A DNA stretch of 64,000 nt from Longimicrobiales bacterium (GCA_035461245.1 DATHVP010000008.1:6000-69999); one strand, 5' to 3'; counted from the stretch's first letter, positions 1 to 15,850 are shown. Notes: a model not told the origin generated them from the letters alone. Translations and numbers: made by a program.

Positions 1-690
1 AACAACCCCATCGCCATCATCAGTGCCAAGGCGCGGCTGATGCTGCGCGAGGGGCGCGAGCAGCTGCCACCGCGGGCACGGGAGGAGGTCGCCAAGATAG
101 CTGAACTGGCGGACCGGGTGGCACGCATTGCACAGGGGCTGCTTTCATACTGCCGCCCCGCCCCCGGGATCCGCCAGCCGCTGGACGTGCGGCTGCCCGT
201 CCGGCGAGCGCTCGCATATGTGGAAGGACGCGCCCGCCATGCGGGTGTGGTGGTCAACGACAGCCTGCCACTCGCACTGCCGGCTGTAGTGGCGAACGCC
301 CCGGAGATGGAGCAGGTGTTCCTCAACCTGTTTCTCAACGCGCTGGACGCCATGCCCGATGGCGGCACGCTCGAGGTGAGTGCGTCCGTCCTGCCGTCGG
401 CGGCGCACGACGGAGCGGCTGATGCCATTGCCATCGAGGTGCGCGACACGGGGTGTGGCATTGCCCCGTCCATCCGGGACCGGATCTTCGAGCCGTTCCT
501 CACGACCAAGGGCGGCAGGGGCACGGGTCTGGGCCTCTCCATCTGCCAGGGCCTCGTGCGGAGCCACGGCGGCGAGATCTGCCTGCACAGCGAGGCGGGT
601 GGCGGCACACGGGTCCGGGTGACCCTGCCTGTGGCGGTGGCAGCAGCTGCTCATGGTCGACCGGCGCGGGTGGCGGTGAACCATGCCTGA
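1..690 (+). CDS. sensor histidine kinase, C-terminal part (5' end lies outside the window)
   Basis: The frame-1 ORF is open at the window start. NNPIAIISAKARL looks like the tail of an H-box. It is followed by an N-box (FLNLFLNALDAM), G1 (VRDTGCGI), F (FEPF) and G2 (GRGTGLGLSI), which are HATPase_c motifs. Confidence 0.85.
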   Translation, partial: NNPIAIISAKARLMLREGREQLPPRAREEVAKIAELADRVARIAQGLLSYCRPAPGIRQPLDVRLPVRRALAYVEGRARHAGVVVNDSLPLALPAVVANAPEMEQVFLNLFLNALDAMPDGGTLEVSASVLPSAAHDGAADAIAIEVRDTGCGIAPSIRDRIFEPFLTTKGGRGTGLGLSICQGLVRSHGGEICLHSEAGGGTRVRVTLPVAVAAAAHGRPARVAVNHA

Positions 691-2068
691 GCTCAGGGTG
701 CTGGTCGTGGATGATGAGCCCGGCATGCTGGAGGTCTGCACGGATATCCTGCGGGAGCTGCCGGGCGTGCGCGTCGTGGCCGAGAGCGACTCGACCCGGG
801 CGCGGACGCTGCTCGACGGAGGAACCTGGGACCTGCTCATGACGGACCTCTGCATGCCAGACGTCGATGGGCTGCAGCTGCTGCGAGCCGCGAGGGAGCA
901 GGACCCGGAGCTGCCGGTGCTCATGCTCACGGCGTTCCCCAGCGTCGAGACCGCGGTGGAAAGCATGAAGCATGGTGCTGCTGACTACCTGACCAAGCCG
1001 TTCCTGCCTGACGACCTGCTGCACACGGTGCAGCGACTGCTCGACAGCCGACAACTCCGCGCGGAGAACCGGCTGCTCCGAAGGCAGGTCGAGCGCGGTC
1101 ATACGTTCGGCGAGATGATCGGTCAGAGCGCCGCCATGCAGGCCGTCTTCGAGCTGATCGATCGGGTCGCCTGTTCAGATGTGGACGTGCTCATAACCGG
1201 CGAGACCGGGACAGGCAAGGAACTCGTTGCCCGTTCCATCCACCAGCGCAGCCAGCGCGCTGGCGGCCGCTTCGTGCCGGTGGACTGCGGAGCCATTCCG
1301 GAGGAGCTGCTGGAGAGCCAGCTCTTCGGTCACGAGCGAGGAGCGTTCACTGGTGCCCACACCCGGAGCATGGGTCTCCTCGAGTTCGCTCATCGGGGTA
1401 CGTTCTTCATGGATGAGATCGCCCAGCTGGCCCCCCGCCTCCAGGCCAAGCTGCTGCGGGCGCTGCAGGAGCGCCGGATCCGCCGGGTGGGTAGCACGCA
1501 GGAACTGGACGTTGACGTACGTATACTCGCAGCCACTGCCCTCGACCTGCAGGCGGAGGTGACGGCGCAGCGGTTCCGCATGGACCTGTTCTATCGCATC
1601 AACGTGGCCCACGTGCATCTCCCGGCCCTGCGACAGCGTGTCGAGGACATCCCGTCCCTGGCCGCTCATTTCCTCACCCGATACGGTGCGGAAATGCAGC
1701 GGACCGGCATGCAACTCGATGGCGGGGCGCTGGAAGTGCTGTGCGGCTACTCCTGGCCGGGTAACGTGCGAGAGCTGCAGAACGTGATCAAGCGCAGCAT
1801 TGCGCTGGCGCGGCGCGAATGCATCCGCGTTGAAGACCTGCCGGAGCACATCGTGACTGCCGCTGCCGTGCCCGGCACTGGGGAGGGCCCGGGATTCTTC
1901 GACCTGCGCGACCAGCACGTGGCCAACTTCGAGCAGGAGTACCTGCGTCAGCTGCTGAAGTCATGCCGGGGCAACATCTCCCAGGCCGCAGGTGAGGCCC
2001 GCCTGCCGCGGGGCACGTTCTATCGCCTTCTCGGCCGCCACGGCCTGGACCCCTCAAGCTACCGCTGA
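683..2068 (+). CDS. sigma-54-dependent response regulator (NtrC family enhancer-binding protein)
   Basis: There is a REC domain (VLVVDDEPGM, TDLCMPDVDG, LTKP). The AAA+ core has Walker A GETGTGKE and the sigma-54 contact loop ERGAFTGA. A C-terminal Fis-type HTH is present (ISQAAGEARLPRGTFYRLL). The ATG overlaps the kinase stop by 8 nt. Confidence 0.95.
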   Translation: MPELRVLVVDDEPGMLEVCTDILRELPGVRVVAESDSTRARTLLDGGTWDLLMTDLCMPDVDGLQLLRAAREQDPELPVLMLTAFPSVETAVESMKHGAADYLTKPFLPDDLLHTVQRLLDSRQLRAENRLLRRQVERGHTFGEMIGQSAAMQAVFELIDRVACSDVDVLITGETGTGKELVARSIHQRSQRAGGRFVPVDCGAIPEELLESQLFGHERGAFTGAHTRSMGLLEFAHRGTFFMDEIAQLAPRLQAKLLRALQERRIRRVGSTQELDVDVRILAATALDLQAEVTAQRFRMDLFYRINVAHVHLPALRQRVEDIPSLAAHFLTRYGAEMQRTGMQLDGGALEVLCGYSWPGNVRELQNVIKRSIALARRECIRVEDLPEHIVTAAAVPGTGEGPGFFDLRDQHVANFEQEYLRQLLKSCRGNISQAAGEARLPRGTFYRLLGRHGLDPSSYR

Positions 2069-2192
2069 GCACTGTTCCATCGCCGTGACACGGCCGGGGC
2101 CGCTGTCTCATCGGCGTTACACCTCGTCCAGCTGTTGCAGCAGCAATCACTTCCGCAGTTCATGGCGCCACCGCCCGTCCATTCTCCCTGGA

Positions 2193-2216
2193 GCCTGTCT
2201 CATCAGCGAGACAGGC
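2193..2216. promoter_or_regulatory. perfect 9-bp inverted repeat (gcctgtctc-N6-gagacaggc); candidate activator-binding site or terminator hairpin
   Basis: The repeat was read directly. It lies 125 nt after the regulator stop and about 105 nt upstream of the sigma-54-type promoter. No T-tract follows, so it is not a classical intrinsic terminator. Confidence 0.35.
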
Positions 2217-2319
2217 GCTGGCCTGCGCGCCGCTGGCGCCCCGGGTTGCTGGTGGCATAAGACCAATCAGAGCAAGCAGTTATGCTGTACATGCCAGTTG
2301 GGCCGCAGCCGGGCAGGTC

Positions 2320-2335
2320 CGGCACCGCGATTGCC
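2320..2335 (+). promoter_or_regulatory. candidate sigma-54 (-24/-12) promoter
   Basis: The sequence cGGCACcgcgaTTGCc has GG at 2321-2322 and GC at 2333-2334, matching the canonical TGGCAC-N5-TTGC spacing. It lies 98 nt upstream of ATG 2432 and immediately downstream of a sigma-54 activator gene. Confidence 0.55.
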
Positions 2336-2431
2336 CTTATCAGGAGCGTCACAATGCCGCGCGCCGGCGGAACGTTGCGGGGAACGGTGCCGCGGAAGCT
2401 TGACTGCACGAACGAACCTGTGGGGGGATCC

Positions 2432-3853
2432 ATGAAGCGGACGTACTGTCGAAGCTTTCGCGCCGTCCTGGTGCTGGCCGTTGCTTCAGCCGTGGGCTGC
2501 GAACCTGACGTGGTATATCGGGACCCGGTGCTGTACGACGCACCGCCTGCCGGTGCAGGTGACTTCCTGGGCTACTCGGCAGCGGCAACAAAGCGCACGG
2601 TGTGCGGTAACTGCCACATAGGGAAACAGCGGGAGTGGGAAGAGACGGCCCACGCTGATGCCTGGGCCACACTGGCGCAGAGTGGCGCCATGCAGCCGTT
2701 GTGTCAGGAGTGTCATACGGTCTCGTCACGGGGCAACGTAGTTGCCACTCCCAGTGTCGGGTGGCCGGCCACACAGAACGCGCGCTACCGGGACGTACAG
2801 TGTGAGGCGTGCCACGGCCCGGGCCTGCTCCATGTAATGAACCCGGACGCGCGAGGGAATCGCCCGCTGGCCCCGGTGGCAGTGGCGGCGGACCCGGCCT
2901 GGGGTTGCGGCCAGTGCCACTCAGGCGCGCACCGACCTTATGCCGAGGAATGGGCGGGATCGCTGCACGCCAGGCAGGTCGGCTCCCGCAGCACGAACGT
3001 GAACTGCATTGGTTGCCACGAGGCGAAGGGCGTGCTGCGCGCCTGGGGGGTGAAGTCGACGATTCTCGAGGAGACGACTGATGCAGGTCACATGGCGATC
3101 ACGTGCGTGGTCTGCCATGACCCGCATGATGCTCGGAACAGCGGGCAGTTGCGCTTCCCCATGGATGTCCCGTCGGTGCAGGAGAACCTGTGCATGAAGT
3201 GCCACCAGCGCAGGGGCACACCGGACCTGGCCTCTCAGTCGGCCGGCCCGCATTCGCCCGAAGGTCCGCTGCTCCTCGGTGAGGCAGGCTGGCTGCCACC
3301 AAACTTCGAGTATCCGGCGGGCGCACTGGTGGGGAGCCACGGCAGTGACAGGAACCCGCGCCTGTGCGCCACCTGCCACGTCACCGATTACCAGGTGCAC
3401 GACCCGATCACCAGCGCTTCGGGATTCCGCGCGACGGGGCACAGCTTCCAGGCGATCCCGTGCGTGGATGACGGCGGCGTGCCCACCGGCGAGCGTTCGT
3501 GTGAGATGACCCAGCGTTCCTTCCGTAGCTGCACGAGTTGCCACCTCACTGAAACTGCAGCGCGGGCGGCCCTCAGTGTGGCCGAGATGCGCATCAGCCG
3601 ACTGGCGGGCGAAATCGGCAGCATGCTGCCGCGCATCGCTGCCTCCGAGTTCAGCAACACCGACAACCGGTACACGACGGCGGAGGGTGCGCGCTTCAAC
3701 ATGCAACTGGCTCAGAAGAAGGGCTCGGTCGCCCACAACCCGTTCCTGCTGGAGGCGCTGCTCCTGGCCAGCATACGGCAGATCGAGATCGACTACGGCA
3801 TCAGGCCATCCGCTGCAGTGTCACTGCAGGCGGAGCTGACGCAGCACGACTGA
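2432..3853 (+). CDS. nonahaem c-type cytochrome, probable lipoprotein
   Basis: Nine CxxCH motifs are present (CGNCH, CQECH, CEACH, CGQCH, CIGCH, CVVCH, CMKCH, CATCH, CTSCH). The start was moved from 2282 to ATG 2432, giving MKRTYCRSFRAVLVLAVASAVGC, a signal peptide with a lipobox-like AVGC. Confidence 0.9.
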   Translation: MKRTYCRSFRAVLVLAVASAVGCEPDVVYRDPVLYDAPPAGAGDFLGYSAAATKRTVCGNCHIGKQREWEETAHADAWATLAQSGAMQPLCQECHTVSSRGNVVATPSVGWPATQNARYRDVQCEACHGPGLLHVMNPDARGNRPLAPVAVAADPAWGCGQCHSGAHRPYAEEWAGSLHARQVGSRSTNVNCIGCHEAKGVLRAWGVKSTILEETTDAGHMAITCVVCHDPHDARNSGQLRFPMDVPSVQENLCMKCHQRRGTPDLASQSAGPHSPEGPLLLGEAGWLPPNFEYPAGALVGSHGSDRNPRLCATCHVTDYQVHDPITSASGFRATGHSFQAIPCVDDGGVPTGERSCEMTQRSFRSCTSCHLTETAARAALSVAEMRISRLAGEIGSMLPRIAASEFSNTDNRYTTAEGARFNMQLAQKKGSVAHNPFLLEALLLASIRQIEIDYGIRPSAAVSLQAELTQHD

Positions 3854-3946
3854 TGGATCCAGACTCGGATGGGCGGCGGCCGGACCCCTACCCCGGCCCT
3901 GCCGGTGCCGGCTCGCCGCCCACCGAGTGGCTCGCAGAGGAAGGTC

Positions 3947-4801
3947 ATGCATGTGACTGCCGGATCCGGGAGGCCATACCGCTGGCCATTCACTGCAGCT
4001 GCCGTACTGCTGGCATCGCTGGTGCTGGTGACCGCGGGCGCGGCCATGCTTTCAGTCCGGAATGAGTCCCGCGCCGTGCATGCGGCTGGTTCCGGTGCCG
4101 TCTATTCGACCGGTGCGCACCCAGCGTTGCCCGCTGGCGCCGGGCCTGCCATCGCCGCCTCGAACGACCGCACGATTGCGAGCGTCCCGACGCCGGTGGC
4201 CGAGACCACCCGGCGGCGCGCGTTCGACCACGCTGTGCATGAATCCGTCAGCTGCACACGCTGCCATGGCGCGGGTGGTGAGCATCGAGCCCTGCTGGTG
4301 CGCGGCCCCGCGGACTGCGCTGCCTGTCACCACGACGACGCGGCCCCGCGCATCTGCAGCGATTGCCATGCACTGGCAGGGCTGCCTGAGCCAGGCCATG
4401 TCATCCTTCGACTTGCCCTGGGCGTTTGGGCGGCGCCGCAGGAGCGGGAGCTGCCCTTCGGTCACGCCGTGCACGGCGCGGTTGATTGCCGTGAATGCCA
4501 CCAACGCCCCGTGACGCTTGCCATGGAACGCAGCTGCGGGTCCTGCCACGAGGCGCACCACTCCGCTGCATCCGATTGCGCGGCGTGTCATGGGCCGGCA
4601 ACAGCGCGGGCGGAGCACGTTCACGGTGCCCGCGTGCACCTGTCGTGCGAGGGTGCGGGCTGCCATGCGGGTGCCGTTGCGCCTGCGCCGGACCTGTCGC
4701 GCAGTCTCTGCATCGCCTGCCACGCGCCGCAGGTCGAACACGAACCGGGCGAGGCCTGCGCCCGCTGTCACCTGCTCGCGGCAGCGGGAGGTGCCCCGTG
4801 A
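3947..4801 (+). CDS. multihaem c-type cytochrome (c3/c7-type repeats), N-terminal membrane anchor or signal
   Basis: Eight CxxCH motifs are present (CTRCH, CAACH, CSDCH, CRECH, CGSCH, CAACH, CIACH, CARCH), plus one CX4CH (CEGAGCH). There are F-x-H-x2-H...CxxCH units (FDHAVHESVSCTRCH, FGHAVHGAVDCRECH). ATG 3947 is preceded by AGAGGAAGG. The hydrophobic N-terminus reads FTAAAVLLASLVLVTAGAAML. Confidence 0.85.
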   Translation: MHVTAGSGRPYRWPFTAAAVLLASLVLVTAGAAMLSVRNESRAVHAAGSGAVYSTGAHPALPAGAGPAIAASNDRTIASVPTPVAETTRRRAFDHAVHESVSCTRCHGAGGEHRALLVRGPADCAACHHDDAAPRICSDCHALAGLPEPGHVILRLALGVWAAPQERELPFGHAVHGAVDCRECHQRPVTLAMERSCGSCHEAHHSAASDCAACHGPATARAEHVHGARVHLSCEGAGCHAGAVAPAPDLSRSLCIACHAPQVEHEPGEACARCHLLAAAGGAP

Positions 4802-6273
4802 GATGCAGGCTTCCAGCCATGGCCGGCCTGCTGCTGCCAGGCGTGCTGGCCGCCGCTCCGCTGGGTGCGCAACAGGTCCGCGTGACCGGCGCCTCCACCA
4901 TGAGATACATCGAGCTGCGGCCATTGGCCCGGGACAGCGTGGCGGAGGACCAGGTGCCTGGTTCCGGGCTGCTGCGCCAGTTGCCTGACGGCCGCACCGT
5001 CCGATGTGTGCCCGGGGATCCCTTCTGTCGTTACTCTCGTCCGGGCGAGCGGGTGGCCGCCGTGCCGCTGCTGCAGGACCTCGAAGCCAGCGCATGGGGA
5101 CTCGGCCGCGGCGTCCGGGGTTTTGCGCACCTCCGCATGCGCAGCGCATTGGGTGGAAGCGCCGGCATCTGGCCCCAGGAGGACGACGCTGTCGAACTGC
5201 TGGCCGCGTACGCCGAACTTGAGCGCACGCGGTACCGGATCCGTGCCGGTCGGCAATGGCAGGTATCCGGACTTGGTTTCTACAATTTCGATGGCATGAA
5301 TGCCGGCGGCGAGCCCGTGGCGCGAACCTGGGTCGAAGTGTACGCCGGACGCAGTCTGGTCCGGGGCATGAATGAATCCCGCGCCGGTGGCGCCCTCGAG
5401 GCCATCGAGGAATTCGCGCCGGCGGCGCACGGTATCATCGCCGGTGCCCACGCCCGCTACCGCCCCGCCACGGGCGTGGCGCTGTCCGCGTCGTATCAGG
5501 CGGACTTCCGAAGTGATGGTGCCGGGCTGTTCGCGGAGCTCGCCGCTCTGCATGCCTCGTGGCAGGGCGGCGCGGCGTCCGTCGAAGTGGCAGTGGAGAC
5601 GGATGTTGCCACTCTCGGACTCAACGAGGCGCGCGTGTCGGTGCATGCATCGCCCCGGGGGCCAGTGGCGCTCCACGGCGAGCTTCGGCGCTACCGCCCC
5701 TACTTCGAGCTGTGGACGATCTGGGGCGCGTTCTCACCCGTCGGCTTCGACGAAGCGCGTTTCGGCGCGACCTGGGCGGCCTCTGGTCGCAGGCTGCTGT
5801 TCCGCACGGACCTCGCGCACCGCCGCTACGGTGATGCCGGGGTGGCCAATTCCCTTGATGAGTTCCGCGGCAGCGGCTGGGGTGTCCTGGTTGGTGGAAC
5901 CTGGCTGCCGGCGCCCGCCTGGCGTGTAGATGGCGCGTATCGGGTGGAGGCGGGATTCGGCGCGGCCCGCCGGGACGGTCATGCGGGCGTCACGCGCCGG
6001 CTCGGTACTGCGGGCTCCCTGTCACTGCAGGCTCTGGCCTTCCAGCGTCTCTACGAGTTTCGTCTCGACGAGGGCACTGTCCGTGGCGTGACGGCGGAAC
6101 TGGCGCTGCCCCTCCTGCCCCGGGCGACGCTGTTCGCCACCGGCGCGGCGTATCGGCACCCCGCTGGCCGCTCCGGCGGGGTCGACTGGAACCAGCGCCG
6201 TGGCAGCCTGCGTCTCCAGTGGATGCTCGGTTCGGAACCGTCGCTACCCGCCTGGAATGGAGGTGGGCAATGA
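4798..6273 (+). CDS. predicted outer-membrane beta-barrel protein (family not recognised)
   Basis: GTG 4798 is preceded by GGGAGG (4786-4791) and overlaps the upstream stop (GTGA); ATG 4819 is the alternative start. The Sec-type N-terminus reads VRCRLPAMAGLLLPGVLAAAPLGAQQ. There are no long hydrophobic helices. Many short amphipathic Tyr/Trp/Arg/Gly-rich stretches occur (YRIRAGRQWQVSGLGFYNF, WRVDGAYRVEAGFG, SLSLQALAFQRLYEF, GSLRLQWML). Confidence 0.55.
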   Translation: MRCRLPAMAGLLLPGVLAAAPLGAQQVRVTGASTMRYIELRPLARDSVAEDQVPGSGLLRQLPDGRTVRCVPGDPFCRYSRPGERVAAVPLLQDLEASAWGLGRGVRGFAHLRMRSALGGSAGIWPQEDDAVELLAAYAELERTRYRIRAGRQWQVSGLGFYNFDGMNAGGEPVARTWVEVYAGRSLVRGMNESRAGGALEAIEEFAPAAHGIIAGAHARYRPATGVALSASYQADFRSDGAGLFAELAALHASWQGGAASVEVAVETDVATLGLNEARVSVHASPRGPVALHGELRRYRPYFELWTIWGAFSPVGFDEARFGATWAASGRRLLFRTDLAHRRYGDAGVANSLDEFRGSGWGVLVGGTWLPAPAWRVDGAYRVEAGFGAARRDGHAGVTRRLGTAGSLSLQALAFQRLYEFRLDEGTVRGVTAELALPLLPRATLFATGAAYRHPAGRSGGVDWNQRRGSLRLQWMLGSEPSLPAWNGGGQ

Positions 6274-7709
6274 CGCGCGCCCGGCTGCTGCAGGCGGGAA
6301 CGGCGCTCGCTGTGCTCGCCGCCGGCGCCGGCCTGGTGCGAGGCGCACCGGGCGGCGGCGACCTGTTCCCCCATGCCGTGCATGAGCGCCTGTTCCCTGT
6401 GTGCGAGAGCTGTCACGCAGGCGTGTTCGCCGATGAACCGGCTGCCGCGTTCCCGCAGCCGGCCCACTGCCGCCACTGCCACGATGGTGTGAGGGCGGAC
6501 TCCGTTGCCTGGACCGGGGCCGCACCCCGCGTGTCCAACCTCCGCTTCTCCCATGGGCAGCATGGGAGGGCACTGGCGGCAGCGGGTGAACCTGCAAGCT
6601 GCCAGGCCTGTCATGCCCGGGGCGGCGAGCCGGCGCGCATGGACGTCGGTGCCGCCACCGCCGAGCGCTGCATCGCCTGCCACGAACACAGTGCGACGAC
6701 GCACATGGCGCTGCCCGCCGATTGCAGCCGCTGCCACCTGCCGCTGGATCGGGTGGCGGAACTGAGCGCCGGCCGCATCGCCCGCTTCCCGCGACCGCCC
6801 TGGCACGAAGCGGACGACTTCATACTGACGCACGCAACGACGGCCGCACCGGCCGATGCGTCGTGCGGCGTCTGTCACGCCCGCCAGACGTGCGAGCGCT
6901 GCCATGCCAATGCGTCGGCCCTGGCCGCGGTCATGGCGCTGCCGCAGGACACCCGCGTGGCGCAACTGGAACGCGGACGGCCGGCTGTGTATCCGCTGCC
7001 GGCAGGACATGCCGCGGCGGACTGGCACCTGGCCCACGGTACGGCTGCCCGTGCCGCCGTCGGTTCCTGCGCCAACTGCCACACGCGACCCAGTTGCACG
7101 GCATGCCATGCGGGCGGTGACGGCCGTGCGCTCGCGCTGGTGGCGCAGCTGCCGCCGGTGGCGCCCGGCGCGGCACCGGGCGTGGATCCTGCGCGCATCA
7201 CGCGAGGCGTGCATGGCGCCGATGTCCGGCTGCAGCACGGCCGCCTGGCGGCGTCCGGGCAACTGGACTGCGCCCAGTGCCACGCCCGTGCCGAATGCTC
7301 CGAGTGCCACGCCGCAGCGGACTCCCGCGCGTTCCACCTGCCGAACTTCGTGGAACGGCACGCCGTGGATGTCTTCACCGGCCGCGGCGAGTGCCAGGCC
7401 TGCCACAGCACCGACACATTCTGCCGTGCCTGCCATGCACAGGCGGGCATTGCCTCCGGCGACATGAAAGCGGCGTTCCATGATGGCCAGCCCATGTGGG
7501 TGCTATCCCATGGCCGCGCCGCGCGACTGGGCCTGGAGGCCTGCGCTTCCTGCCACCGGCAGAGCGACTGCGTGCAGTGCCATTCGGCGGCGGGCGGCTG
7601 GGGGGTCAACCCCCACGGCCCGGGTTTCACCGGCCGGGGCGAGTCCCGCAGTGCAGCCAGCTGCCGGCTCTGTCACCTGGCCAGCCCGCCGAGAGGAAGT
7701 GGATCATGA
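6270..7709 (+). CDS. 16-haem c-type cytochrome (polymer of c3/c7-type units), periplasmic
   Basis: Sixteen CxxCH motifs were counted by eye. Paired units recur, such as SCGVCHARQTCERCH, SCANCHTRPSCTACH, DCAQCHARAECSECH, ECQACHSTDTFCRACH and ACASCHRQSDCVQCH. The signal peptide reads MTRARLLQAGTALAVLAAGAGLVRG. ATG 6270 overlaps the barrel stop (ATGA). Confidence 0.9.
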   Translation: MTRARLLQAGTALAVLAAGAGLVRGAPGGGDLFPHAVHERLFPVCESCHAGVFADEPAAAFPQPAHCRHCHDGVRADSVAWTGAAPRVSNLRFSHGQHGRALAAAGEPASCQACHARGGEPARMDVGAATAERCIACHEHSATTHMALPADCSRCHLPLDRVAELSAGRIARFPRPPWHEADDFILTHATTAAPADASCGVCHARQTCERCHANASALAAVMALPQDTRVAQLERGRPAVYPLPAGHAAADWHLAHGTAARAAVGSCANCHTRPSCTACHAGGDGRALALVAQLPPVAPGAAPGVDPARITRGVHGADVRLQHGRLAASGQLDCAQCHARAECSECHAAADSRAFHLPNFVERHAVDVFTGRGECQACHSTDTFCRACHAQAGIASGDMKAAFHDGQPMWVLSHGRAARLGLEACASCHRQSDCVQCHSAAGGWGVNPHGPGFTGRGESRSAASCRLCHLASPPRGSGS

Positions 7710-10006
7710 GTGTCGATCGGCGCATGTTCCTCAAGGGTGCCGCAGTGGCGTCGGCGGCGGCCATCGCACCCGCAGGCCTGGCCGCCGCTGCCGGGTCCCG
7801 CGCCAGGCAGGTGCCGGAATGGCACCGGGCCCCCTGTCGCTTCTGCGGTATCGGCTGCGGCCTGCTCGTCGCCGTGCAGGACGGTCGCGCAGTCGCGGTA
7901 AGGGGAGACCTCGAATCGCCAGTGAACCGCGGGATGGCATGCGTGCGCGGTTACCATGCCATCCACACGCTGTACGGGCGGGACCGCGTCACCAGCCCGC
8001 TCATACGTCATGCAGGCAGGCTCGTGGCGGCAACCCCCGCCGACGCGTACGACCTCATCGCGGGGCGGATCAAGGAGGTCGTCGCCAGCCAGGGTGCGGA
8101 TGCCACAGGCGTGTACGGCTCCGGTCACTGGAGCGTGACGGACGCGTACGTGGCGGCGAAGCTGTTCAAGGCCGGGCTCGGCACGAACAACGTGGACACC
8201 AGCACGCGGCTCTACCACGCTTCTGCCACGGCCGGATTCCTGAGCACCTTCGGCCAGCCGGGGGCACCCGGCTGCTTCGCCGACGTCGAGTTCGCGGACA
8301 CGTTCGTGCTGTGGGGCCACAACATGGCCGAGACCGATCCGGTGCTCTTCTCCCGCATCCTGGAGCGGCGGCGGACCAGTCCCGCCGTGCGCATCATAAC
8401 CCTCGGCACGCAGGCCACGCGCACCAGCTACGCTGCTGATCGCGCCCTGCTGCACCGGCCGCATGCGGAGATCGCCCTCGCCAACGCCATATGCAGCGCC
8501 GTGGTCCGGCGTGGCGGGGTGGACAGGAACTTCGTGAGCCGCCATGTCGCCTTTGCCAGGGGCACGGACGCTCCCGGCTACGGTGCGCATGAGCAGGTCA
8601 CTGTCACCGACGACGTCGTTCCCTCGACGTTCGACGCGTTCGTACGGTTCCTCGAGGACTATCGACCGGAGCAGATGGAGGCCGCTACCGGCGTGGCGGC
8701 CGCCGACCTCAACTGGCTCGCCGCGCTGTATGCCGATCGTGGACGGAAGGTGCTGTCCGTCTGGGGCAGCGACCTGAACCAGCACGTGCGTGGCACCTGG
8801 CTGAACAACGCGCTGCACAACATCCACCTGATCACCGGCAAGGTCGCGTCACCGGGGAACGGCGCCCTGTGTTGCGCCGCTCAGCCGGGCGGTGCCGATG
8901 CCGTCCACGCAGCCGGCGCCACGCCCGATGGACTGCCCCGCGGCTCCGTCTCCAGCGCTGCCGACAGGCAACACGCCGCCCGGATCTGGGGCGTGCCGGC
9001 CAGCCGCATCAGTGCCCAGCCGGGCCGGACGGCCCTGGCCATGTTCCGCGGCGTGGAGAGCGGCGCCATGCGCTTCCTCTGGGTGCAGGCCACGAACCCG
9101 CTGGCCAGCCTGCCGAACGCCCGGCGCTACCGGCGGGCGGTAGCCGACGGGAACGCGTTCCTTGTGGTGACAGAAGCGTATCCAACCGTCACTTCTGCCG
9201 CCGCCGATGTGGTACTGCCTGCCGCCCTGTGGCTGGAGCGGGAAGGCGTGTACGGCAGCAGTGAGCGGCGCAGCCAGTACTTTCCGCGGGTCGTCCCCGC
9301 GCCCGGCTCCGCAAGGGCCGATGGCTGGCACATGGTCGAGGTCGGCCGGCGGCTGGGCTTCGGCGCACTGCTGCCGTGGCAGGAGCAATCCCTCGTGGCC
9401 GATGCCTGGGCAGAACTGATCCGCTTCCATCCGACGGCGCAGCCGGTGTCCCTTGCCGTGATGCGTAACGGTCCGGGCGCCATCTGGCCGTTCGGTGGTG
9501 AGCAGGAGGCGGGCTGGCGCTACAGCACCGCACACGATCCTGGCACCGATCGGTCCAGGGGCGCATTCCACTTCTACGGCTACAGTGACGGGCGTGCACG
9601 CATCTGGCTTCGGCCTCACGAGCCGCCGGCGGAAATGCCCGACGAACGCTACCCCTTCTGGCTCACCGTGGGGCGTGTACTCGAACACGGCGGGACGGGC
9701 ACGCTTACCCGCCGCGTGCCCGCGCTGCAGCGCGCCGTGCCGCGTGCGTACGTCGAACTGAGTCGGAAGGACGCGACAGCACTGGGCATCCGCGACGGCG
9801 AGCGCGTGCGCCTGGTGACACGCCGAGGGTCGCTGGAGATGGATGCGCGCATAGAGCACCGCAGCCAGCCCCAGCAGGGCCAGGTTTTCGTGCCGTGCTT
9901 CGATGAAGACGCGCCCGTCAACCTGCTGACTCTCGATGCATGCTGCCCGCTAGCCGGACAGCCGGACTACGGCAAGTGCGCCGTGCGCGTGGAGCGCCTG
10001 ACATGA
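7706..10006 (+). CDS. Tat-exported molybdopterin oxidoreductase catalytic subunit, NapA-like but lacking the Cys Mo ligand
   Basis: The twin-arginine signal reads MSVDRRMFLKGAAVASAAAIAP. The FS0 4Fe-4S motif is PCRFCGIGCG...NRGMACVRGY. The C-terminus is NapA-like (VFVPCFDEDAPVNLLTLDACCPLAGQPDYGKCAVRVE). The segment TRLYHASATAGF aligns with the NapA ARHCMASA motif (see findings). ATG 7706 overlaps the upstream stop (ATGA). Confidence 0.9.
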   Translation: MSVDRRMFLKGAAVASAAAIAPAGLAAAAGSRARQVPEWHRAPCRFCGIGCGLLVAVQDGRAVAVRGDLESPVNRGMACVRGYHAIHTLYGRDRVTSPLIRHAGRLVAATPADAYDLIAGRIKEVVASQGADATGVYGSGHWSVTDAYVAAKLFKAGLGTNNVDTSTRLYHASATAGFLSTFGQPGAPGCFADVEFADTFVLWGHNMAETDPVLFSRILERRRTSPAVRIITLGTQATRTSYAADRALLHRPHAEIALANAICSAVVRRGGVDRNFVSRHVAFARGTDAPGYGAHEQVTVTDDVVPSTFDAFVRFLEDYRPEQMEAATGVAAADLNWLAALYADRGRKVLSVWGSDLNQHVRGTWLNNALHNIHLITGKVASPGNGALCCAAQPGGADAVHAAGATPDGLPRGSVSSAADRQHAARIWGVPASRISAQPGRTALAMFRGVESGAMRFLWVQATNPLASLPNARRYRRAVADGNAFLVVTEAYPTVTSAAADVVLPAALWLEREGVYGSSERRSQYFPRVVPAPGSARADGWHMVEVGRRLGFGALLPWQEQSLVADAWAELIRFHPTAQPVSLAVMRNGPGAIWPFGGEQEAGWRYSTAHDPGTDRSRGAFHFYGYSDGRARIWLRPHEPPAEMPDERYPFWLTVGRVLEHGGTGTLTRRVPALQRAVPRAYVELSRKDATALGIRDGERVRLVTRRGSLEMDARIEHRSQPQQGQVFVPCFDEDAPVNLLTLDACCPLAGQPDYGKCAVRVERLT

Positions 10007-10851
10007 GGGCCCGCGCCCGCGGCCTGACGGCAGGCGCCCGCGTCCTGACTGCTGGCGCTGCAGCGGCTGGTGCGTGGCTGCTGCTGTGGGGCCTCAACGG
10101 TGCCCTCGAACGGCGCGTCGCAGGGCGGCTCATGCATGTTGCGATGCCTGCCGGCGCTGGCCCCGCGGATGTTCGCCATGCGGCTGACCTGCCTGGCGCT
10201 CGCCTCATCGCACCGGCTGCGCCCATCGCTGCCGAAGCGCTCGTGTTCCGCTCCACCCCTGCGGCCGTGGCCTCAGCCGTCGCCGTGGTGCGGAGGGCGG
10301 ACGCTCACCCCCGGACACTGGCGACATATCGGTCCCTGCGCGCCTATCCGGGAGCGCCGCCACGGGTGCCACACGGCCTTACCATCGAAGAGTTCCGGCA
10401 GTCTTCCTGCAACAACTGTCATGAGCGAGGCGGTTACGCGCCGCGTTTCGGTGCGTATGTCCCGGTCACGCCCCACCCCGAGCGCGCCGGCTGCCTGCAA
10501 TGCCACGCCACGGACGCGACGGTGGTTGGCCGGCCGCTGCCGGACGACCGGCCCGACGCACTGTGCCGCCAGTGCCATGCCGCCCTTGCCGCCGCGCCGG
10601 CAGAGCGCGGACCTGCCTGGCCGGCCGCGGCATGGCCCGAGGTGCGGGGCAGTGCCGACGGCGCGCCGCCCGACATCCCCCACGACGTGCAGCAGCGGGG
10701 CAATTGCCTGGCATGCCACATGGGGCCGGCGGCAGTGGCGGAGATCCGCACGACCCATCCCGACCGGACGAACTGCAGGCAGTGCCACCTGGCCCCCGCC
10801 GAAGGCTGGTGGCCTACATTGTCGCCCCCGTCGTCGACAGGTCTGCCATGA
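10003..10851 (+). CDS. pentahaem cytochrome c made of two NapB-like dihaem units plus one extra haem
   Basis: The first unit is PPRVPHGL...CNNCH...THPERAGCLQCH and the second is PPDIPHDV...CLACH...THPDRTNCRQCH. Both match the NapB pattern (PP-x-IPH...C-L-x-CH...H...C-x-QCH, recalled from memory). CRQCH lies between them. ATG 10003 overlaps the upstream stop (ATGA). Confidence 0.7.
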   Translation: MRARARGLTAGARVLTAGAAAAGAWLLLWGLNGALERRVAGRLMHVAMPAGAGPADVRHAADLPGARLIAPAAPIAAEALVFRSTPAAVASAVAVVRRADAHPRTLATYRSLRAYPGAPPRVPHGLTIEEFRQSSCNNCHERGGYAPRFGAYVPVTPHPERAGCLQCHATDATVVGRPLPDDRPDALCRQCHAALAAAPAERGPAWPAAAWPEVRGSADGAPPDIPHDVQQRGNCLACHMGPAAVAEIRTTHPDRTNCRQCHLAPAEGWWPTLSPPSSTGLP

Positions 10852-11594
10852 CGCGACTCTGCTCGATCATCTTCCTCGGCGCCGCCGTCACCTGGTCGGG
10901 CTGCACCCGCGGCGATGCCGCCCGCCCTGAGCACGTCGCCGCCGATGCGCCGTCTCTGTCCGCGGCAGTGCCGACGCTGGCGGCTGCAGAACCCGCTCCT
11001 GCCCACGCCGGCGATGACGGGCCGATCCTGGAGCCGGGACAGCTGCGCAGCCTGCGCACCGCCGTCGTGCACGGCCGCACGGGTCCTGACGGGGCGCCGT
11101 TCGACGTGACGCTGCGCACACCCGGGGATGCTGGCCATGCGCGCCGCTTCGGCACGCACACCATCGACATCGCGCTGCGCTCCGGCGACGTGGGCGTCAT
11201 CCAGTATCCGTGCACCGCCTGCCACCTCGGCCGTGCCCTGGACCTGCAGGAGGAGCGCATGGCCGGCGCCCATGCGGACCTGCAGGTGACGCATCCCCGA
11301 GAGACGGGGGCTGCATGCCGCACCTGCCACTCCGCTGACAACGTCGAACTGCTGGCCCTGCGCAGTGGGGAGCAGACCACACTCGACCACGCGTACCGGA
11401 TCTGCGCTCAGTGCCATTTCAGCCAGGCGGATGCGTGGGCTGCCGGGATCCACGGCAAGCGACTGGACGGCTGGCAGGGCCGTCGCGTCGTCATGGGCTG
11501 CACCGATTGCCACGACCCCCACGCGCCCGCACTGCATGTGCGCCTGCCGTTCCGGCCGCCCGCCTTGCCCAGCACCGGGAGACGCCAGCCATGA
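10848..11594 (+). CDS. tetrahaem c-type cytochrome, probable lipoprotein (NrfB/ActA-like role)
   Basis: Four CxxCH motifs are present (CTACH, CRTCH, CAQCH, CTDCH). The signal reads MTRLCSIIFLGAAVTWSGC, with a lipobox-like WSGC. ATG 10848 overlaps the upstream stop (ATGA). Confidence 0.8.
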   Translation: MTRLCSIIFLGAAVTWSGCTRGDAARPEHVAADAPSLSAAVPTLAAAEPAPAHAGDDGPILEPGQLRSLRTAVVHGRTGPDGAPFDVTLRTPGDAGHARRFGTHTIDIALRSGDVGVIQYPCTACHLGRALDLQEERMAGAHADLQVTHPRETGAACRTCHSADNVELLALRSGEQTTLDHAYRICAQCHFSQADAWAAGIHGKRLDGWQGRRVVMGCTDCHDPHAPALHVRLPFRPPALPSTGRRQP

Positions 11595-12709
11595 TTGCCG
11601 AATCAAGCCGGGAGTTCCGCCTGGAGGACCTGCTGCGCCGTGTCGCCGCCGATGCGGATGCGTCCATGTCTGACCCGACAGCCGCTGCCACTGCCAGCGG
11701 GCCGCCCGCGTCCCGGCAGCAGTCCGCCCGTCCACCCTGCGCCGGTGAGGACGGCTGCAGTGGCTCGTGCAGCGGGGATCGCGGGACGCTGGCTGGGAAG
11801 CCGGTGGACCGGCGCAGGGCGCTGGGGATGCTCCTGGTTGGTGCGGGCGCCGGTGTCCAGGCCGCCTGCGCACCCGCAAGTGCGGCCACTGATGAGGAGC
11901 GTGAGGTGAAGCTGCTCCAGTGGCGCGAGTACATCAAGAACAACTACCGGCGGATGACGGAGCACGAACGCGCTGACACCATCCAGCGCCTGGAACGGCT
12001 GGCGCAGCTGCGCAGCGGAGTGAATGTCCTGATACAGGACACGCCTGCGCAGCCGGGCGTCATGTTCGGTTACGCGTTCAACATCAGCAAGTGCAAGGGG
12101 TTCCGCAGCTGTGTCGAGGCCTGCATCAACGAGAACAACCTGGATCGACGCGCGGATACCCACTACATCCGCATCTTCGAGATGGAGAACGGCGTCCTCG
12201 ACCTTGATCACGGGGACGCTACTTTCGCCCATGAGGTCCCGGCCGCCGGGCATTTCTACCTCGGCACGCAGTGCTTCCAGTGCGCCAACCCGCCGTGCGT
12301 CAAGGTCTGCCCCGTGGGCGCGACCTGGCAGGAGCCTGACGGCATAACCGTCGTCGATTACGACTGGTGCATCGGCTGCCGGTACTGCATGGCCGCCTGC
12401 CCGTACTGGGCTCGCCGCTTCAACTGGGGCCAGCCCGAAGTGCCGGCCCAGGAGGTCAACCCGAACCAGCACTACCTCGGGAACCGGGCGCGCAGGAAGG
12501 GCGTCGTCGAAAAGTGCACGTTCTGCATCCAGCGTTCACGGGAAGGCCGGCTGCCCGCCTGTGCCGAGGCATGCCCCACAGGTGCACGCGTGTTCGGCAA
12601 CCTGCTGGACCCCGGTTCCGAGATCCGCTGGGTGCTGGAGAACAGGAACGTGTTCCGCCTGAAGGAAGACCTGAAGACCGAACCGCGGTTCTGGTACTTC
12701 ACCGACTGA
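11591..12709 (+). CDS. 4Fe-4S ferredoxin-type subunit of the NrfC/PsrB/DmsB family with an internal Tat motif
   Basis: Cluster motifs are present: CKGFRSCVEAC, CFQCANPPCVKVCP, CIGCRYCMAACP, CTFC...CAEACP. DRRRALGMLLVGAGAG is twin-arginine-like. ATG 11591 overlaps the upstream stop (ATGA). The N-terminal roughly 70 aa are unusual (see findings). Confidence 0.9.
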   Translation: MIAESSREFRLEDLLRRVAADADASMSDPTAAATASGPPASRQQSARPPCAGEDGCSGSCSGDRGTLAGKPVDRRRALGMLLVGAGAGVQAACAPASAATDEEREVKLLQWREYIKNNYRRMTEHERADTIQRLERLAQLRSGVNVLIQDTPAQPGVMFGYAFNISKCKGFRSCVEACINENNLDRRADTHYIRIFEMENGVLDLDHGDATFAHEVPAAGHFYLGTQCFQCANPPCVKVCPVGATWQEPDGITVVDYDWCIGCRYCMAACPYWARRFNWGQPEVPAQEVNPNQHYLGNRARRKGVVEKCTFCIQRSREGRLPACAEACPTGARVFGNLLDPGSEIRWVLENRNVFRLKEDLKTEPRFWYFTD

Positions 12710-12746
12710 TGAACCGCCCGCGACGAGCGGGCACGGCACGGGCTGC

Positions 12747-14075
12747 GTGATCATGCATCTCCTCGCGTTCCTGCGAACCGCCGTCACCTCCGCCACATCG
12801 GGCGGCTGGCGCTACCGCGCGTGGCTGCTCGTGCTGGCCGCCACCATATCGGTCGGCGCCATGGCGTATGGCATCCAGTTGCGCGACGGGCTGATCGTCA
12901 CGGGCATGAACGACCACGTGAGCTGGGGACTCTACATCTCCAACTTCACCTTCCTCGTCGGCCTCGCCGCCGCCGCCATGATGCTGGTGCTGCCCGCGTA
13001 TGTGCTCAGGGACGTGGACTTCGCGCGCGCCGTACTCATGGCGGAAGCCGTCGCCGTCGCCGCCCTCGTCATGTGCCTGCTCTTCGTCGTCGTGGATGTT
13101 GGCAATCCCATGGCCGGCTGGCATCTCATGCCCGTCATCGGCTCGCTGAACTGGCCCAGCTCACTGCTGGCCTGGGACGTCATCGTGCTCCACGGGTACC
13201 TCGCCCTCAACCTGGCCATACCATTCTACATCCTCTACTCCAGGTACACCGGGCGCGTACCGGACAAGCGCAAGTACCTGCCATGGATGTACGTGGCGGT
13301 CATGTGGGCCGTAAGCATCCACCTGGTGACGGCGTTCCTTTTGGCCGGGCTGCCCGCTCGCCCGTTCTGGAACACCGCCCTGCTCGGCCCGCGCTTCCTC
13401 GCCTCCGCGTTCACTGCTGGCCCGGCGTTCGTGATCCTGCTCCTCTACTTCATCCGCAGCCAGACACGGTACGAGATCAGTGATGGAGCATTCACGAAGC
13501 TCGCACTCATCACGACAGTCGCCGCCCAGATCAACCTGGTGATGCTGGGCTCCGAGCTGTTCTACAAGTTCTATGCGCCCACTCACCACGGCATCAATGC
13601 GAAGTACCTGTTCCTCGGGCTGGATGGCGCGAACGCACTTGTACCGTGGATCTGGTCGGCCATTGCCCTGAACGTTCTGGCGACGCTGGCGCTGTCCATC
13701 CACCCGCTGCGCCGCAACCCTCGCACGCTCATGGTTGCATGCGCTGTCCTGTTCATTGCCATCTGGGTGGAGAAGGGCATCGGGCTCGTGATACCGGGGT
13801 TCGTGCCGTCTCCCCTCGGCGAGATCGTGGAGTACTCGCCCACCTGGATCGAGCTGGCGGTGACGGCCGGCGTCTGGGCCGTGGGCCTGCTGGTCCTGAC
13901 CGTCCTCGTCCAGGTGGCGCTGCCCATCGAGCTCGGCCTCGTGCGCAGTCCCTACATTCACGCCGACCGGCAAGCCGGCGTCATCAGGCCGCGCCTGACG
14001 CGAACACAGGGCGTTCGCCGCGACGAACGGCCCACCGACCGGAATCGGGGCGGGCGCCCCGTACGCACACGCTGA
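12747..14075 (+). CDS. NrfD/PsrC-family integral membrane quinol-interacting subunit
   Basis: The protein is polytopic, with about 10 hydrophobic helices. The N-terminal region is typical of the NrfD family (GMNDHVSWGLYISNFTFLVGLAAAAMM). It follows an NrfC-like gene. The start is GTG 12747, or alternatively ATG 12753. Confidence 0.85.
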   Translation: MIMHLLAFLRTAVTSATSGGWRYRAWLLVLAATISVGAMAYGIQLRDGLIVTGMNDHVSWGLYISNFTFLVGLAAAAMMLVLPAYVLRDVDFARAVLMAEAVAVAALVMCLLFVVVDVGNPMAGWHLMPVIGSLNWPSSLLAWDVIVLHGYLALNLAIPFYILYSRYTGRVPDKRKYLPWMYVAVMWAVSIHLVTAFLLAGLPARPFWNTALLGPRFLASAFTAGPAFVILLLYFIRSQTRYEISDGAFTKLALITTVAAQINLVMLGSELFYKFYAPTHHGINAKYLFLGLDGANALVPWIWSAIALNVLATLALSIHPLRRNPRTLMVACAVLFIAIWVEKGIGLVIPGFVPSPLGEIVEYSPTWIELAVTAGVWAVGLLVLTVLVQVALPIELGLVRSPYIHADRQAGVIRPRLTRTQGVRRDERPTDRNRGGRPVRTR

Positions 14076-14126: not shown

Positions 14127-15098
14127 ATGCCCGGATTCTCGCCGAACGACACCCGCTACCCCTTCGCGGCAGTAATCACCGGCGCTGGAGTGGCCGCCAT
14201 TGCGGGTGGGCTCCTCATGCTTGCGGGATTCCTCCCTTACCTGGCGGCGGGGGCAGGAGTCGCACTGGGCCTGTTCATCGGCTCCTCCATCAAGTATGCC
14301 GACCAGTGGGAGAAGGCCGTTCTGCTGCGCCTCGGTCGCTATCGCGGGCTTCGCGGACCCGGATACTTCGCCGTCGTGCCGATCATCGATCGCATCAGCT
14401 ACCACATCGACCAGCGCATCCGGACCACTGCGTTCGGCGCCGAGTCGTGCCTGACCCGGGATACCGTGCCGGTGAACGTGGACGCCATCGCCTTCTGGGT
14501 AGTCTATGACGCGGAGCGCGCCGCCCTCGAGGTGCAGGACTATGACGAGGCCGTCATCCTCTCCGCCCAGACCGCACTGCGCGATGCCATCGGCAAGCAT
14601 GACCTCGCCGAGCTCATTCAGTCGCGGGTTGAACTCGGGCGCGGGCTCAAGGAGGCACTGGAACTGAAGATGGAGAACTGGGGCATTCACGTACAGTCCG
14701 TCGAGATCCGCGACGTTATCATCCCGCCAGCACTGGAGGACGCCATGTCCCGCCAGGCACAGGCGGAGCGGGAGCGGCAGGCCCGCATTATCCTCGGTAC
14801 TGCCGAGACCGAGATCGCCTCCAAGTTTGTCGAGGCGGCTGACAGTTATCGCGAACACCCGGCTGCATTGAACCTCCGTGCCATGAACATGCTCTATGAG
14901 AGCATCGTCAAGCGCGGCTCCCTCATGGTCGTGCCGTCGGGCCTTGCTGATTCCCTGAACGTGCCAAGACTGACTGGCCTCATGGGCGTGGCCGCCATGG
15001 TGCCCGGCAACCAGGCCCTCATGCAGGCCGAGCCCACGGATGGGGATGGCCTCGCCAGCCAGCGCCACCCTCTGCCGATCATGGCGGACAGTCAGTGA
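14127..15098 (+). CDS. SPFH/band-7 (stomatin/prohibitin-like) membrane protein
   Basis: An AAGGAGG RBS precedes the start. An N-terminal TM region is followed by the band-7 core (WEKAVLLRLGRYRGLRGPGYFAVVPIIDR, RDTVPVNVDAIAFW, IQSVEIRDVIIP, QAQAERERQARII). Confidence 0.9.
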   Translation: MPGFSPNDTRYPFAAVITGAGVAAIAGGLLMLAGFLPYLAAGAGVALGLFIGSSIKYADQWEKAVLLRLGRYRGLRGPGYFAVVPIIDRISYHIDQRIRTTAFGAESCLTRDTVPVNVDAIAFWVVYDAERAALEVQDYDEAVILSAQTALRDAIGKHDLAELIQSRVELGRGLKEALELKMENWGIHVQSVEIRDVIIPPALEDAMSRQAQAERERQARIILGTAETEIASKFVEAADSYREHPAALNLRAMNMLYESIVKRGSLMVVPSGLADSLNVPRLTGLMGVAAMVPGNQALMQAEPTDGDGLASQRHPLPIMADSQ

Positions 15099-15843: not shown

Positions 15844-15850
15844 ACCGTGG

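Follow-up and report, generated by a model that had tools for sequence, protein, structure and literature searches.

A Longimicrobiales operon that joins a candidate porin-cytochrome conduit to a NapA-derived protein lacking the molybdenum-ligand cysteine

Organization of the operon

The stretch of DNA analysed here (the window) comprises 64 000 nucleotides of high-GC sequence (65-72% G+C) from a Longimicrobiales bacterium of the phylum Gemmatimonadota (GCA_035461245.1, DATHVP010000008.1:6000-69999), and all positions are counted from its first letter. Its subject of interest is a run of nine open reading frames (ORFs), g1-g9, on the + strand between 2432 and 14075, downstream of genes for a sensor kinase and an NtrC-type activator (Table 1). 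In order, they encode a putative surface lipoprotein cytochrome (g1), a second multihaem cytochrome (g2), an outer-membrane beta-barrel (g3), a 16-haem cytochrome (g4), a protein derived from the periplasmic nitrate reductase NapA (g5), two further cytochromes (g6 and g7), a four-cluster ferredoxin subunit (g8) and an NrfD-family membrane protein (g9). A preliminary description of this DNA had placed ten genes in the span. We find nine, the tenth co-directional gene (Band_7/SPFH) lying just past it at 14127-15098, where it is conserved after g9 in relatives. The six 4-nt start/stop overlaps of that description are all present (GTGA at 4798; ATGA at 6270, 7706, 10003, 10848 and 11591), and its estimate of about 42-43 haem-binding motifs agrees with our count of 42 CXXCH and one CX4CH for the operon. 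We consider the nine ORFs to be translationally coupled, and inspection of the + strand from 1900 to 16200 revealed no terminator-like site. The g5 product is 100% identical to a protein of a Longimicrobiales metagenome-assembled genome.

Table 1. Features of the operon and of the regulatory region upstream, with positions in the window
Feature	Position	Strand	Details
Sensor histidine kinase, C-terminal part	40..690	+	HATPase_c E = 5e-28; cut by window start
NtrC-type sigma-54 activator	683..2068	+	Response_reg, Sigma54_activat (E = 9e-68), AAA_lid_14, HTH_8
Sigma-54 promoter-like element CGGCAC-N5-TTGCC	2320..2335	+	112 nt 5' of g1
g1, 9-haem lipoprotein cytochrome, putative cell-surface end of conduit	2432..3853	+	9 CXXCH; lipobox ending VGC
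g2, putative periplasmic or in-barrel cytochrome	3869..4801 (alternative start 3947)	+	8 CXXCH + 1 CX4CH
g3, predicted outer-membrane beta-barrel, ~24 strands	4798..6273 (alternative start 4819)	+	0 haem motifs; signal peptide; AlphaFold2 model
g4, 16-haem periplasmic cytochrome	6270..7709	+	16 CXXCH in 479 aa; Cytochrome_C7 repeats; signal peptide
g5, Tat-exported NapA-derived protein without Mo-ligand Cys	7706..10006	+	Tat motif SVDRRMFLK; Molybdop_Fe4S4, Molybdopterin, Molydop_binding
4Fe-4S ligands Cys44, Cys47, Cys51, Cys79 of g5	7835..7942	+	invariant in 151 Cys-less and 46 canonical relatives
Arg81 of g5, position of the FeS-pterin bridging Lys	codon 7946-7948	+	K in 142, R in 9 of 151
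Tyr170-His171 of g5, replacing NapA Cys-Met	8213..8218 (TAC CAC)	+	= Cys152-Met153 of 3ml1, Cys140-Met141 of 2jio; Cys-Met likewise in 2nya, 1ogy, 9pxt
His401-Ala402 of g5, replacing active-site Arg-Glu/Asp	8906..8911 (CAC at 8906)	+	= Arg392 of 3ml1, Arg354 of 2jio
g6, 5-haem cytochrome in NapB position	10003..10851	+	5 CXXCH
g7, 4-haem lipoprotein cytochrome	10848..11594	+	4 CXXCH; lipobox ending SGC, Cys conserved in relatives
g8, Tat-type four-cluster ferredoxin subunit (NrfC/DsrO-like)	11591..12709	+	Fer4_11 E = 1e-19; DRRRA at residue 73
g9, NrfD-family integral membrane quinone/quinol subunit	12747..14075	+	NrfD E = 4e-29
Band_7/SPFH protein, conserved tenth gene	14127..15098	+	Band_7 E = 3e-36

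A four-gene module of porin-cytochrome type

The first four genes make up the putative outer-membrane module. A segment of g1 matches MtrC/MtrF domain II/IV in Pfam (E = 4e-11), and its lipobox cysteine is kept in all 12 of the 12 relatives inspected. The N-terminus of g4 carries a conserved FPHxxHxxLFPxCxxCH, and the protein holds one haem motif per ~30 residues; its signal peptide, like that of g3, is kept in relatives. In relatives g2 always sits between g1 and g3, and a homologue is also present in a canonical sister operon (L164, see below). Although g2 had been described as a membrane-anchored cytochrome, its relatives bear ordinary signal peptides, and the protein is therefore more likely to be periplasmic.

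AlphaFold2, supplied with an alignment of 34 homologues, folds g3 into 24 long strands as assigned by DSSP (predicted local distance difference test, pLDDT, 79.5; predicted template modelling score, pTM, 0.73), so that in the model the barrel has the size, about 20 or more strands, considered sufficient for holding a cytochrome. A Foldseek comparison with the PDB returned generic barrels only, the best query-normalized template modelling scores (TMq, 0.47-0.50) being those of the 24-strand FimD usher and not of 16-18-strand porins. The beta-barrel of the preliminary description is borne out by the model, in which it is a large one; a kinship with MtrB/PioB is not supported, as neither Pfam nor NCBIfam, MtrB_PioB models included, gave a match at E <= 0.01. 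With only generic barrels among the PDB matches, we rejected g3 as a member of MtrB/PioB or of any other named family. A full HMMER profile search over 1.84 billion representatives assigned 405 clusters to the g3 family (282 at E <= 1e-10), which on these counts is modest in size and appears self-contained. Taking one genome per species, its relatives occupy 221 loci, of which the best 80 are all from Gemmatimonadota, and among matches carrying a name the family is restricted to this phylum.

When all window proteins were compared by tblastn with these best 80 of 221 loci, the order g1-g2-g3-g4 was found in about 80 Gemmatimonadota loci, sometimes twice per genome, and the barrel gene was always flanked by multihaem genes. 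That genes for a lipoprotein and a periplasmic multihaem cytochrome stand next to a barrel gene, as had been noted in the window itself, is therefore a conserved trait. The lipobox cysteine of g1 is conserved too, as is that of g7. We regard g1-g4 as a putative Gemmatimonadota-specific four-gene module of porin-cytochrome type that constitutes a family of its own and belongs to none of Mtr, Pcc/Ext or PCC3/4. Some Gemmatimonadales carry two or more copies within about 20 kb (L039 and L041, at 1.30 and 1.32 Mb of OY970192.1; L032). Where the module is found by itself its neighbours vary, with cytochrome b in L022 and CcmF/UbiD/ABC1 in L058, and a constant partner gene beside such loci was accordingly rejected.

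The arrangement has counterparts in MtrCAB of Shewanella, OmaB-OmbB-OmcB and Ext of Geobacter, and PCC3/PCC4, where lipoprotein multihaem, periplasmic multihaem and large barrel genes are likewise adjacent (PMC5566968). It shares with these conduits the MtrC/MtrF-like segment of g1 and a low number of residues per haem (30 in g4), and departs from them in its barrel family and in being a four-gene module with a 16-haem member. Unlike PCC3/PCC4, the operon has no dihaem-b inner-membrane protein, a Nap-derived NrfD module standing in its place. The MtrB barrel has 26 strands, compared with ~24 in the g3 model.

A NapA-derived protein with an altered active site

The g5 sequence is similar to the NapA structure 3ml1 over the whole length of the fold (E = 6e-179), and it scores below the curated NapA cut-offs (NF010055, 689.9 vs 904 bits; TIGR01706, 677.7 vs 930 bits). 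We aligned its residues to five solved NapA structures (3ml1, 2jio, 2nya, 1ogy and 9pxt), and compared 151 distinct relatives that lack the Mo-ligand cysteine (hereafter Cys-less) with 46 canonical (Cys-Met) relatives. In addition to the two replaced residue pairs of Table 1, the equivalent of Met308 in the Desulfovibrio desulfuricans (Dd) enzyme is Ser355 in g5. Across the Cys-less clade the Mo-ligand position is occupied by Y, H, R, F, S or W, with Y accounting for 79%, and position 401 is H in 127/151 (84%) and Q in 11/151. There are 218 positions conserved to at least 95% among the canonical proteins; the Cys-less clade keeps 168 of them and has switched 27, many of them to a new conserved residue, as in E186->G (99%), H663->G (97%), H211->D (95%) and R401->H (84%).

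Other parts of the protein are retained. The tyrosine facing NapB haem II (the Tyr58 equivalent) is kept in 150/151 Cys-less sequences, and the Tat motif (RR-x-F-L-K) is conserved. The pterin-contact residues of EcNapA (from Escherichia coli, Ec) are W212, G213, N215, E218, R720, V721, L722, H724 and H726 (PMC13223375). The Cys-less clade keeps W212, N215, E218, V721, L722 and H724, all more conserved than its mean column identity of 74%, while G213, R720 and H726 are replaced and several basic residues are lost. A substitute Mo ligand elsewhere in g5 was considered and rejected, given that the Asp402 position is Ala in the window and that C389 is only 77% conserved. No NapD-like ORF was found in the window or in any Cys-less locus examined.

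In sum, the comparison with NapAB (3ML1 of C. necator, 2NYA of E. coli, 2NAP/2JIO of D. desulfuricans) gives a divided picture. On the side of likeness are the sequence, the Tat signal, the CX2CX3C...C 4Fe-4S motif, the bridging Lys/Arg, the haem-facing Tyr, most pterin contacts and the c-type cytochrome gene that follows; on the side of difference are the absent Mo-ligand Cys, adjacent Met and active-site Arg, the changed Ec R720 and H726 equivalents and the missing napD. Having lost the cysteine that binds Mo, the arginine that binds substrate and the NapD chaperone, g5 is not a canonical nitrate reductase, and a role in reducing nitrate or other N-oxides, as envisaged in the preliminary description, is not supported. 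The pattern suggests instead that the electron-entry path has been conserved and the catalytic pocket rebuilt.

Two accounts of g5 follow from this. We lean slightly towards a protein that still holds its pterin, a cofactor content we infer, and that would catalyse a different reaction at a Mo/W site without a protein ligand; the conserved switched residues, the intact FeS-Lys-pterin path and the retained pterin contacts speak for it. By analogy with QrcB and ActB, g5 may alternatively be a non-catalytic redox or structural partner of g6, to which we give a little under an even chance on the strength of the napD loss, the variable residue 170, and the lost pterin contacts and basic residues. 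In JGI, many of the Cys-less proteins carry the annotation 'nitrate reductase NapA' or 'nitrate reductase (cytochrome)'.

The five-haem cytochrome and the quinol module

The gene after g5 is in the position of napB, and its product had been described as a tandem NapB. That likeness proved weak: g6 reaches 20 bits against the Pfam model of the dihaem NapB (cut-off 25.1) and E = 0.3 against the NapB structure 1jni, and its best PDB sequence match is a CXXCH-rich chain of 6R2Q (E = 0.002), which we take to be MtrA. Hence the partner cytochrome differs from NapB both in its five haems and in sequence. The putative quinol dehydrogenase is of the NrfCD type with a tetrahaem lipoprotein, and not NapC or NapGH as in NapAB systems. 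The lipoprotein g7 is present in all Nap-type relatives, and g8 and g9 are 70-83% identical across the clade, compared with 52-57% for g5. The nearest solved structure to g9 is ActC of alternative complex III (ACIII; 6f0k_C, E = 1.5e-13). The Band_7 gene follows g9 in L001, L003 and many other loci (77-85% identity); in L164 it is found at the 5' end of the operon instead. Before its twin-arginine motif g8 has a low-complexity extension of ~72 residues (11591-11806), and N-termini are long in relatives too.

Curated models of related quinol modules place these proteins in no known complex. Among Dsr models, g9 passes DsrP (392 vs a cut-off of 350 bits) and g8 falls short of DsrO (188 vs 200), and the cluster has no DsrM, DsrK or DsrJ. 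Among NrfBCD models, g7 and g8 fall short of NrfB (18.8 vs 166.6 bits) and NrfC (118.7 vs 377.6 bits), respectively, and g9 has the NrfD Pfam domain. In composition there is a parallel with Qrc and ACIII, which also combine multihaem cytochrome c, a molybdopterin-family subunit removed from its ancestral chemistry, a four-cluster iron-sulfur protein and an NrfD-type subunit. The Qrc models nevertheless score far under their cut-offs (QrcB 81 vs 440, QrcC 151 vs 400 and QrcD 48 vs 570 bits), as do the Act models. Moreover, the FeS cluster and the cofactor motifs are gone from QrcB and ActB, whereas g5 keeps its cluster and most pterin contacts, and its ancestor is NapA rather than a catalytic subunit of the Psr type. 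Since curated cut-offs failed or partner genes were missing, g7-g9 were rejected as part of Dsr, Nrf, Qrc or ACIII.

By these models the system as a whole appears to fall outside Mtr, Dms, Nrf, Dsr, Qrc and ACIII, and resembles a porin-cytochrome pathway joined to a quinol module of the complex iron-sulfur molybdoenzyme (CISM) type. The kinds of system involved, porin-cytochrome conduit and Nap, are known; what is new is the conduit family and the re-tooled Nap module. A 2026 review gives four nap operon layouts, none of them with an NrfCD-type module (PMC13223375), and a 2025 NapA phylogeny, which covers isolates only, mentions no Cys-less clade (PMC12769810). For marine Gemmatimonadota, matches to NapAB and FeGenie matches to DFE_0461-0465/Cyc2 have been reported, not linked to each other (PMC11316326). 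In the literature searched we found no description of the cluster, of the Cys-less NapA clade or of a nap operon with an NrfCD-type module.

Linkage of the Nap module to the conduit

Loci were sampled by searching metagenome contigs with the alignment of g5 and then by tblastn, and fall into three types. Type i operons comprise canonical NapD-NapA, two 4-haem cytochromes, and NrfC-like and NrfD-like proteins, with no conduit; the second 4-haem cytochrome is a lipoprotein in L110, the single type-i homologue checked. This layout was seen at L110, L111, L134, L135, L149, L161 and others, and L134 belongs to Desulfobulbales, including cultured Desulfosediminicola and Desulfurivibrio. In type ii, canonical NapD-NapA, a five-haem g6 and the same downstream genes lie beside g1-g4 (L012, L013, L028, L097, L108 and L141, with marine Gemmatimonadota among them). 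Type iii, that of the window, has Cys-less NapA and a five-haem g6 beside g1-g4. The haem number of g6, five in conduit-linked operons and four in conduit-free canonical operons, therefore tracks linkage and not the loss of the cysteine.

In a neighbour-joining (NJ) tree the Cys-less sequences (n=151) form one clade nested within canonical NapA, and the Cys-keeping P0042, a transitional form, falls inside this clade. Next to the clade branch, in turn, the canonical P0092, the type ii loci and type i; the near-outgroups are canonical NapD-NapA operons, most of which already adjoin the conduit. The P0092 operon (L164) reads Band_7, g2-like cytochrome, NapD, NapA, g6, g7, g8 and g9, with no barrel. 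At the P0042 locus (L165) the layout is that of the window in full, with a NapD ORF in addition. P0042 itself (L165 10001-12361) keeps the cysteine (RLCA), yet already shows the His-Asp pair and the H726-to-G change seen in Cys-less proteins, and judged by sequence it could be a natural intermediate. A NapD ORF precedes napA in about 40 canonical loci, nearly all those with upstream sequence, and in L165, but in none of the Cys-less loci; among canonical loci it was not found in L142, in L146 or in L151-L162, the most distant ones.

Among loci chosen through NapA only, the conduit adjoins Cys-less NapA in 16 of 18 informative cases and canonical NapA in 4 of 20 (Fisher p = 2e-5). Relative orientation is not constant, the conduit and the Nap module being co-directional in the window, divergent in L003 and L094 and convergent in L038. 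The synteny with a Nap-like gene presumed in the preliminary description thus holds for close relatives and for the g5 clade, and fails for most conduit modules. Because sister loci pair canonical NapD-NapA with the same conduit, the ancestor probably already coupled the conduit to nitrate reduction. For the type ii loci, a link between nitrate reduction and the exchange of electrons with the cell exterior is a good hypothesis, and it is most plausible there.

A proposed electron pathway and its alternatives

Drawing on gene content, residue changes, phylogenetic nesting and synteny statistics, we propose that the operon is an envelope-spanning electron pathway built from two older units. In the first unit (g1-g4), the g3 barrel would sheathe the g2 and/or g4 cytochrome and connect it to the surface lipoprotein g1. 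The second (g5-g9 with the Band_7 protein) would descend from a system of NapD-NapA, 4-haem cytochrome, 4-haem lipoprotein, NrfC-like and NrfD-like proteins. As judged from the canonical operons, the ancestral chain would have run from menaquinol through g9/g8/g7 (NrfD, FeS and tetrahaem subunits) to g6, NapA and finally nitrate. Attachment of the conduit and gain of the fifth haem of g6 probably came first, with the NapA ligand, the substrate residues and the chaperone lost afterwards. In the derived chain, the highly conserved quinol module g7-g9 most likely still feeds g6, from which electrons could pass outward to g4/g2, through the g3 barrel to surface g1, and on to an extracellular acceptor. 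This menaquinol-to-cell-surface pathway, its inner end recruited from a Nap system, is the interpretation we prefer, with moderate confidence. As the NapA-like subunit has lost residues for nitrate reduction, the window system probably represents a novel means of connecting respiration with the cell exterior.

Several observations weigh against the proposed pathway. The barrel matches no known conduit family, Foldseek cannot separate a conduit sheath from other large barrels, and the putative barrel-cytochrome complex is an analogy drawn from architecture. The conduit module mostly stands alone with no Nap gene nearby; its linkage to Nap is therefore clade-specific and not obligatory, and the adjacency seen here could partly reflect regulatory convenience. 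The NapA tree is a distance tree without support values, and the Fisher p-value overstates independence since the sequences are phylogenetically related. Electrons may also flow the other way, from an extracellular donor. Were g5 without a role in electron flow, one would hardly expect it to be so strictly retained; if it is catalytic, its ligand position is a variable one (Y, H, R, F, S or W).

A different account is that g5 is a new catalytic enzyme with Mo/W-bis(pyranopterin guanine dinucleotide) (bisPGD) and no protein ligand, whose own reaction is the main purpose of the operon, with the conduit and/or the quinol module serving as electron source or sink. We consider this possible but doubtful. 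At the switched positions the new residues are themselves conserved, a pattern that looks like neofunctionalization; strong constraint acts on the FeS cluster, the bridging Lys, the Tat motif and most pterin contacts, and the clade, with 151 distinct sequences, is both large and diverse. AioA, the arsenite oxidase, provides a precedent, as its bisPGD site works without a protein ligand, and g5 likewise lacks a side-chain ligand at the Mo-binding position of its relatives. The relationship is at superfamily level only (arsenite_ox_L, 101 vs 359 bits), and the cluster of AioA is of the 3Fe-4S type, its partner being a Rieske protein. Against a new enzyme stand the loss of napD, of several basic residues and of the pterin contacts equivalent to Ec R720 and H726, the variable residue at the ligand position, and neighbouring genes that suggest no candidate substrate. 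A wider form of the idea, in which the Cys-less NapA clade would be an unrecognised Mo/W-bisPGD class with no protein ligand at its active site, performing a non-nitrate periplasmic reaction and tied through a five-haem adaptor to the menaquinone pool and the conduit, we likewise consider possible but doubtful.

Unlikely is the first of the two possibilities raised in the preliminary description, in which the conduit would take up electrons from outside the cell and feed them to g5 as a periplasmic nitrate or N-oxide reductase. The donor would be Fe(II), a cathode or a partner cell. The descent from NapA is clear, six sister loci (L012, L013, L028, L097, L108 and L141) join canonical NapD-NapA to the conduit, and a divergent NirK-like gene lies 1.9 kb downstream. 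The C176D variant of CjNapA, in which Cys176 is the Mo ligand, keeps some activity (PMC12769810). In the window and its 151 relatives, however, the Cys, Met, Arg and Dd Met308 equivalents and two pterin contacts have been replaced together and napD has been lost. Residue 170 may be Y, H, R, F, S or W, which leaves no conserved O- or S-donor in place of the cysteine, and the scores under the NapA cut-offs point the same way.

We consider it very improbable that two independent operons are adjacent by chance, the barrel being an ordinary porin or substrate channel and the cytochromes periplasmic only. The solitary conduit module of most loci and the varying relative orientation (co-directional in the window, divergent in L003 and L094, convergent in L038) would fit such an arrangement, but g4 and g5 are joined by a 4-nt overlap, the linkage survives rearrangements and is specific to one NapA clade, the haem gain of g6 coincides exactly with linkage, and the ~24-strand barrel is always flanked by multihaem genes. 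Hardly credible is the other possibility of the preliminary description, a surface-exposed molybdoenzyme that would receive its electrons by way of the barrel: the Shewanella dmsEFAB genes are a precedent for a molybdoenzyme gene beside a cytochrome/barrel module, but family membership is absent (g1 DmsE 50.7 vs 192 bits; g5 DmsA 85 vs 778 bits), g5 is Nap-derived and probably periplasmic, g5 and g6 keep NapA-NapB contact features such as the NapB-contact Tyr in a Nap-type operon with a quinol module, the cluster has no secretion genes, and most conduit loci have no molybdoenzyme at all.

Gemmatimonadota are abundant in soils and sediments, where their anaerobic respiration is almost uncharacterised. 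The operon offers a complete candidate route of extracellular electron transfer outside the models of Proteobacteria and Desulfobacterota, its barrel family and its point of entry at the inner membrane both being new. It also appears to record a change of role in a respiratory molybdoenzyme, from canonical Nap through Nap with conduit to a Cys-less, NapD-less form, and because intermediates persist in nature (L164, L165, L097 and L141), questions about Qrc/ACIII-type origins become directly testable. If the chemistry of Cys-less NapA proves to be as outlined above, extracellular partners (Fe, Mn, humics or other cells) would be coupled to it directly, and the canonical sister operons could be the long-sought direct enzymatic link from extracellular electron exchange to nitrate reduction. 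Finally, hundreds of metagenomic 'nitrate reductase NapA' proteins are without catalytic residues; as so many napA-annotated proteins lack them, the nitrate-reduction potential of Gemmatimonadota deduced from napA matches has probably been overestimated.

Regulation of the operon and flanking genes

The kinase/NtrC pair and the GGCAC-N5-TTGC promoter-like motif that had been noted upstream were confirmed, and their domains and extent are given in Table 1. The L001 homologue of the truncated kinase is full-length, with PilS-like six-transmembrane, PAS and HATPase domains, and the activator is 78% identical to its L001 homologue, which has the same position there. Sigma-54-like motifs also occur past the activator gene, ahead of the first gene that follows it, in L165 (TGGCAC-N5-TTGCC), L005 and L001 (GGCAT-N5-TTGCC), the background rate of such a motif being 0.04 per 530 nt. 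A GG-N10-GC element next to a gene for a bacterial enhancer-binding protein is thus kept in relatives, and expression of the operon is probably sigma-54 dependent and controlled by the adjacent pair. Only 6 of 78 upstream regions of the conduit module carry the motif, essentially at activator-adjoining loci; regulation is therefore local to the subclade of the window, and the motif was rejected as a general feature of the module. In relatives, an ORF of 133-145 aa is found between the sigma-54-like motif and g1 (L001 4342-4743, L165 3782-4219 and L005 226-585). It is 57-68% identical between loci, matches no family, has a receiver-domain-like sequence and is missing from the window.

Downstream, the Band_7 gene is followed by genes for a hydrophobic protein that matches no family (15145-15843, +) and for a NirK-like two-domain multicopper protein (15956-16993, +), 1.9 kb past g9. 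The latter reaches 182.6 bits against TIGR02376 (cut-off 296) and is not conserved beside the cluster in L001 or L003, and was rejected as a functional clue. Further along the window lie a gene for a radical-SAM protein (one Pfam match) at 18041-19264 (+) and a long ORF of 1878 aa at 57212-62848 (+).

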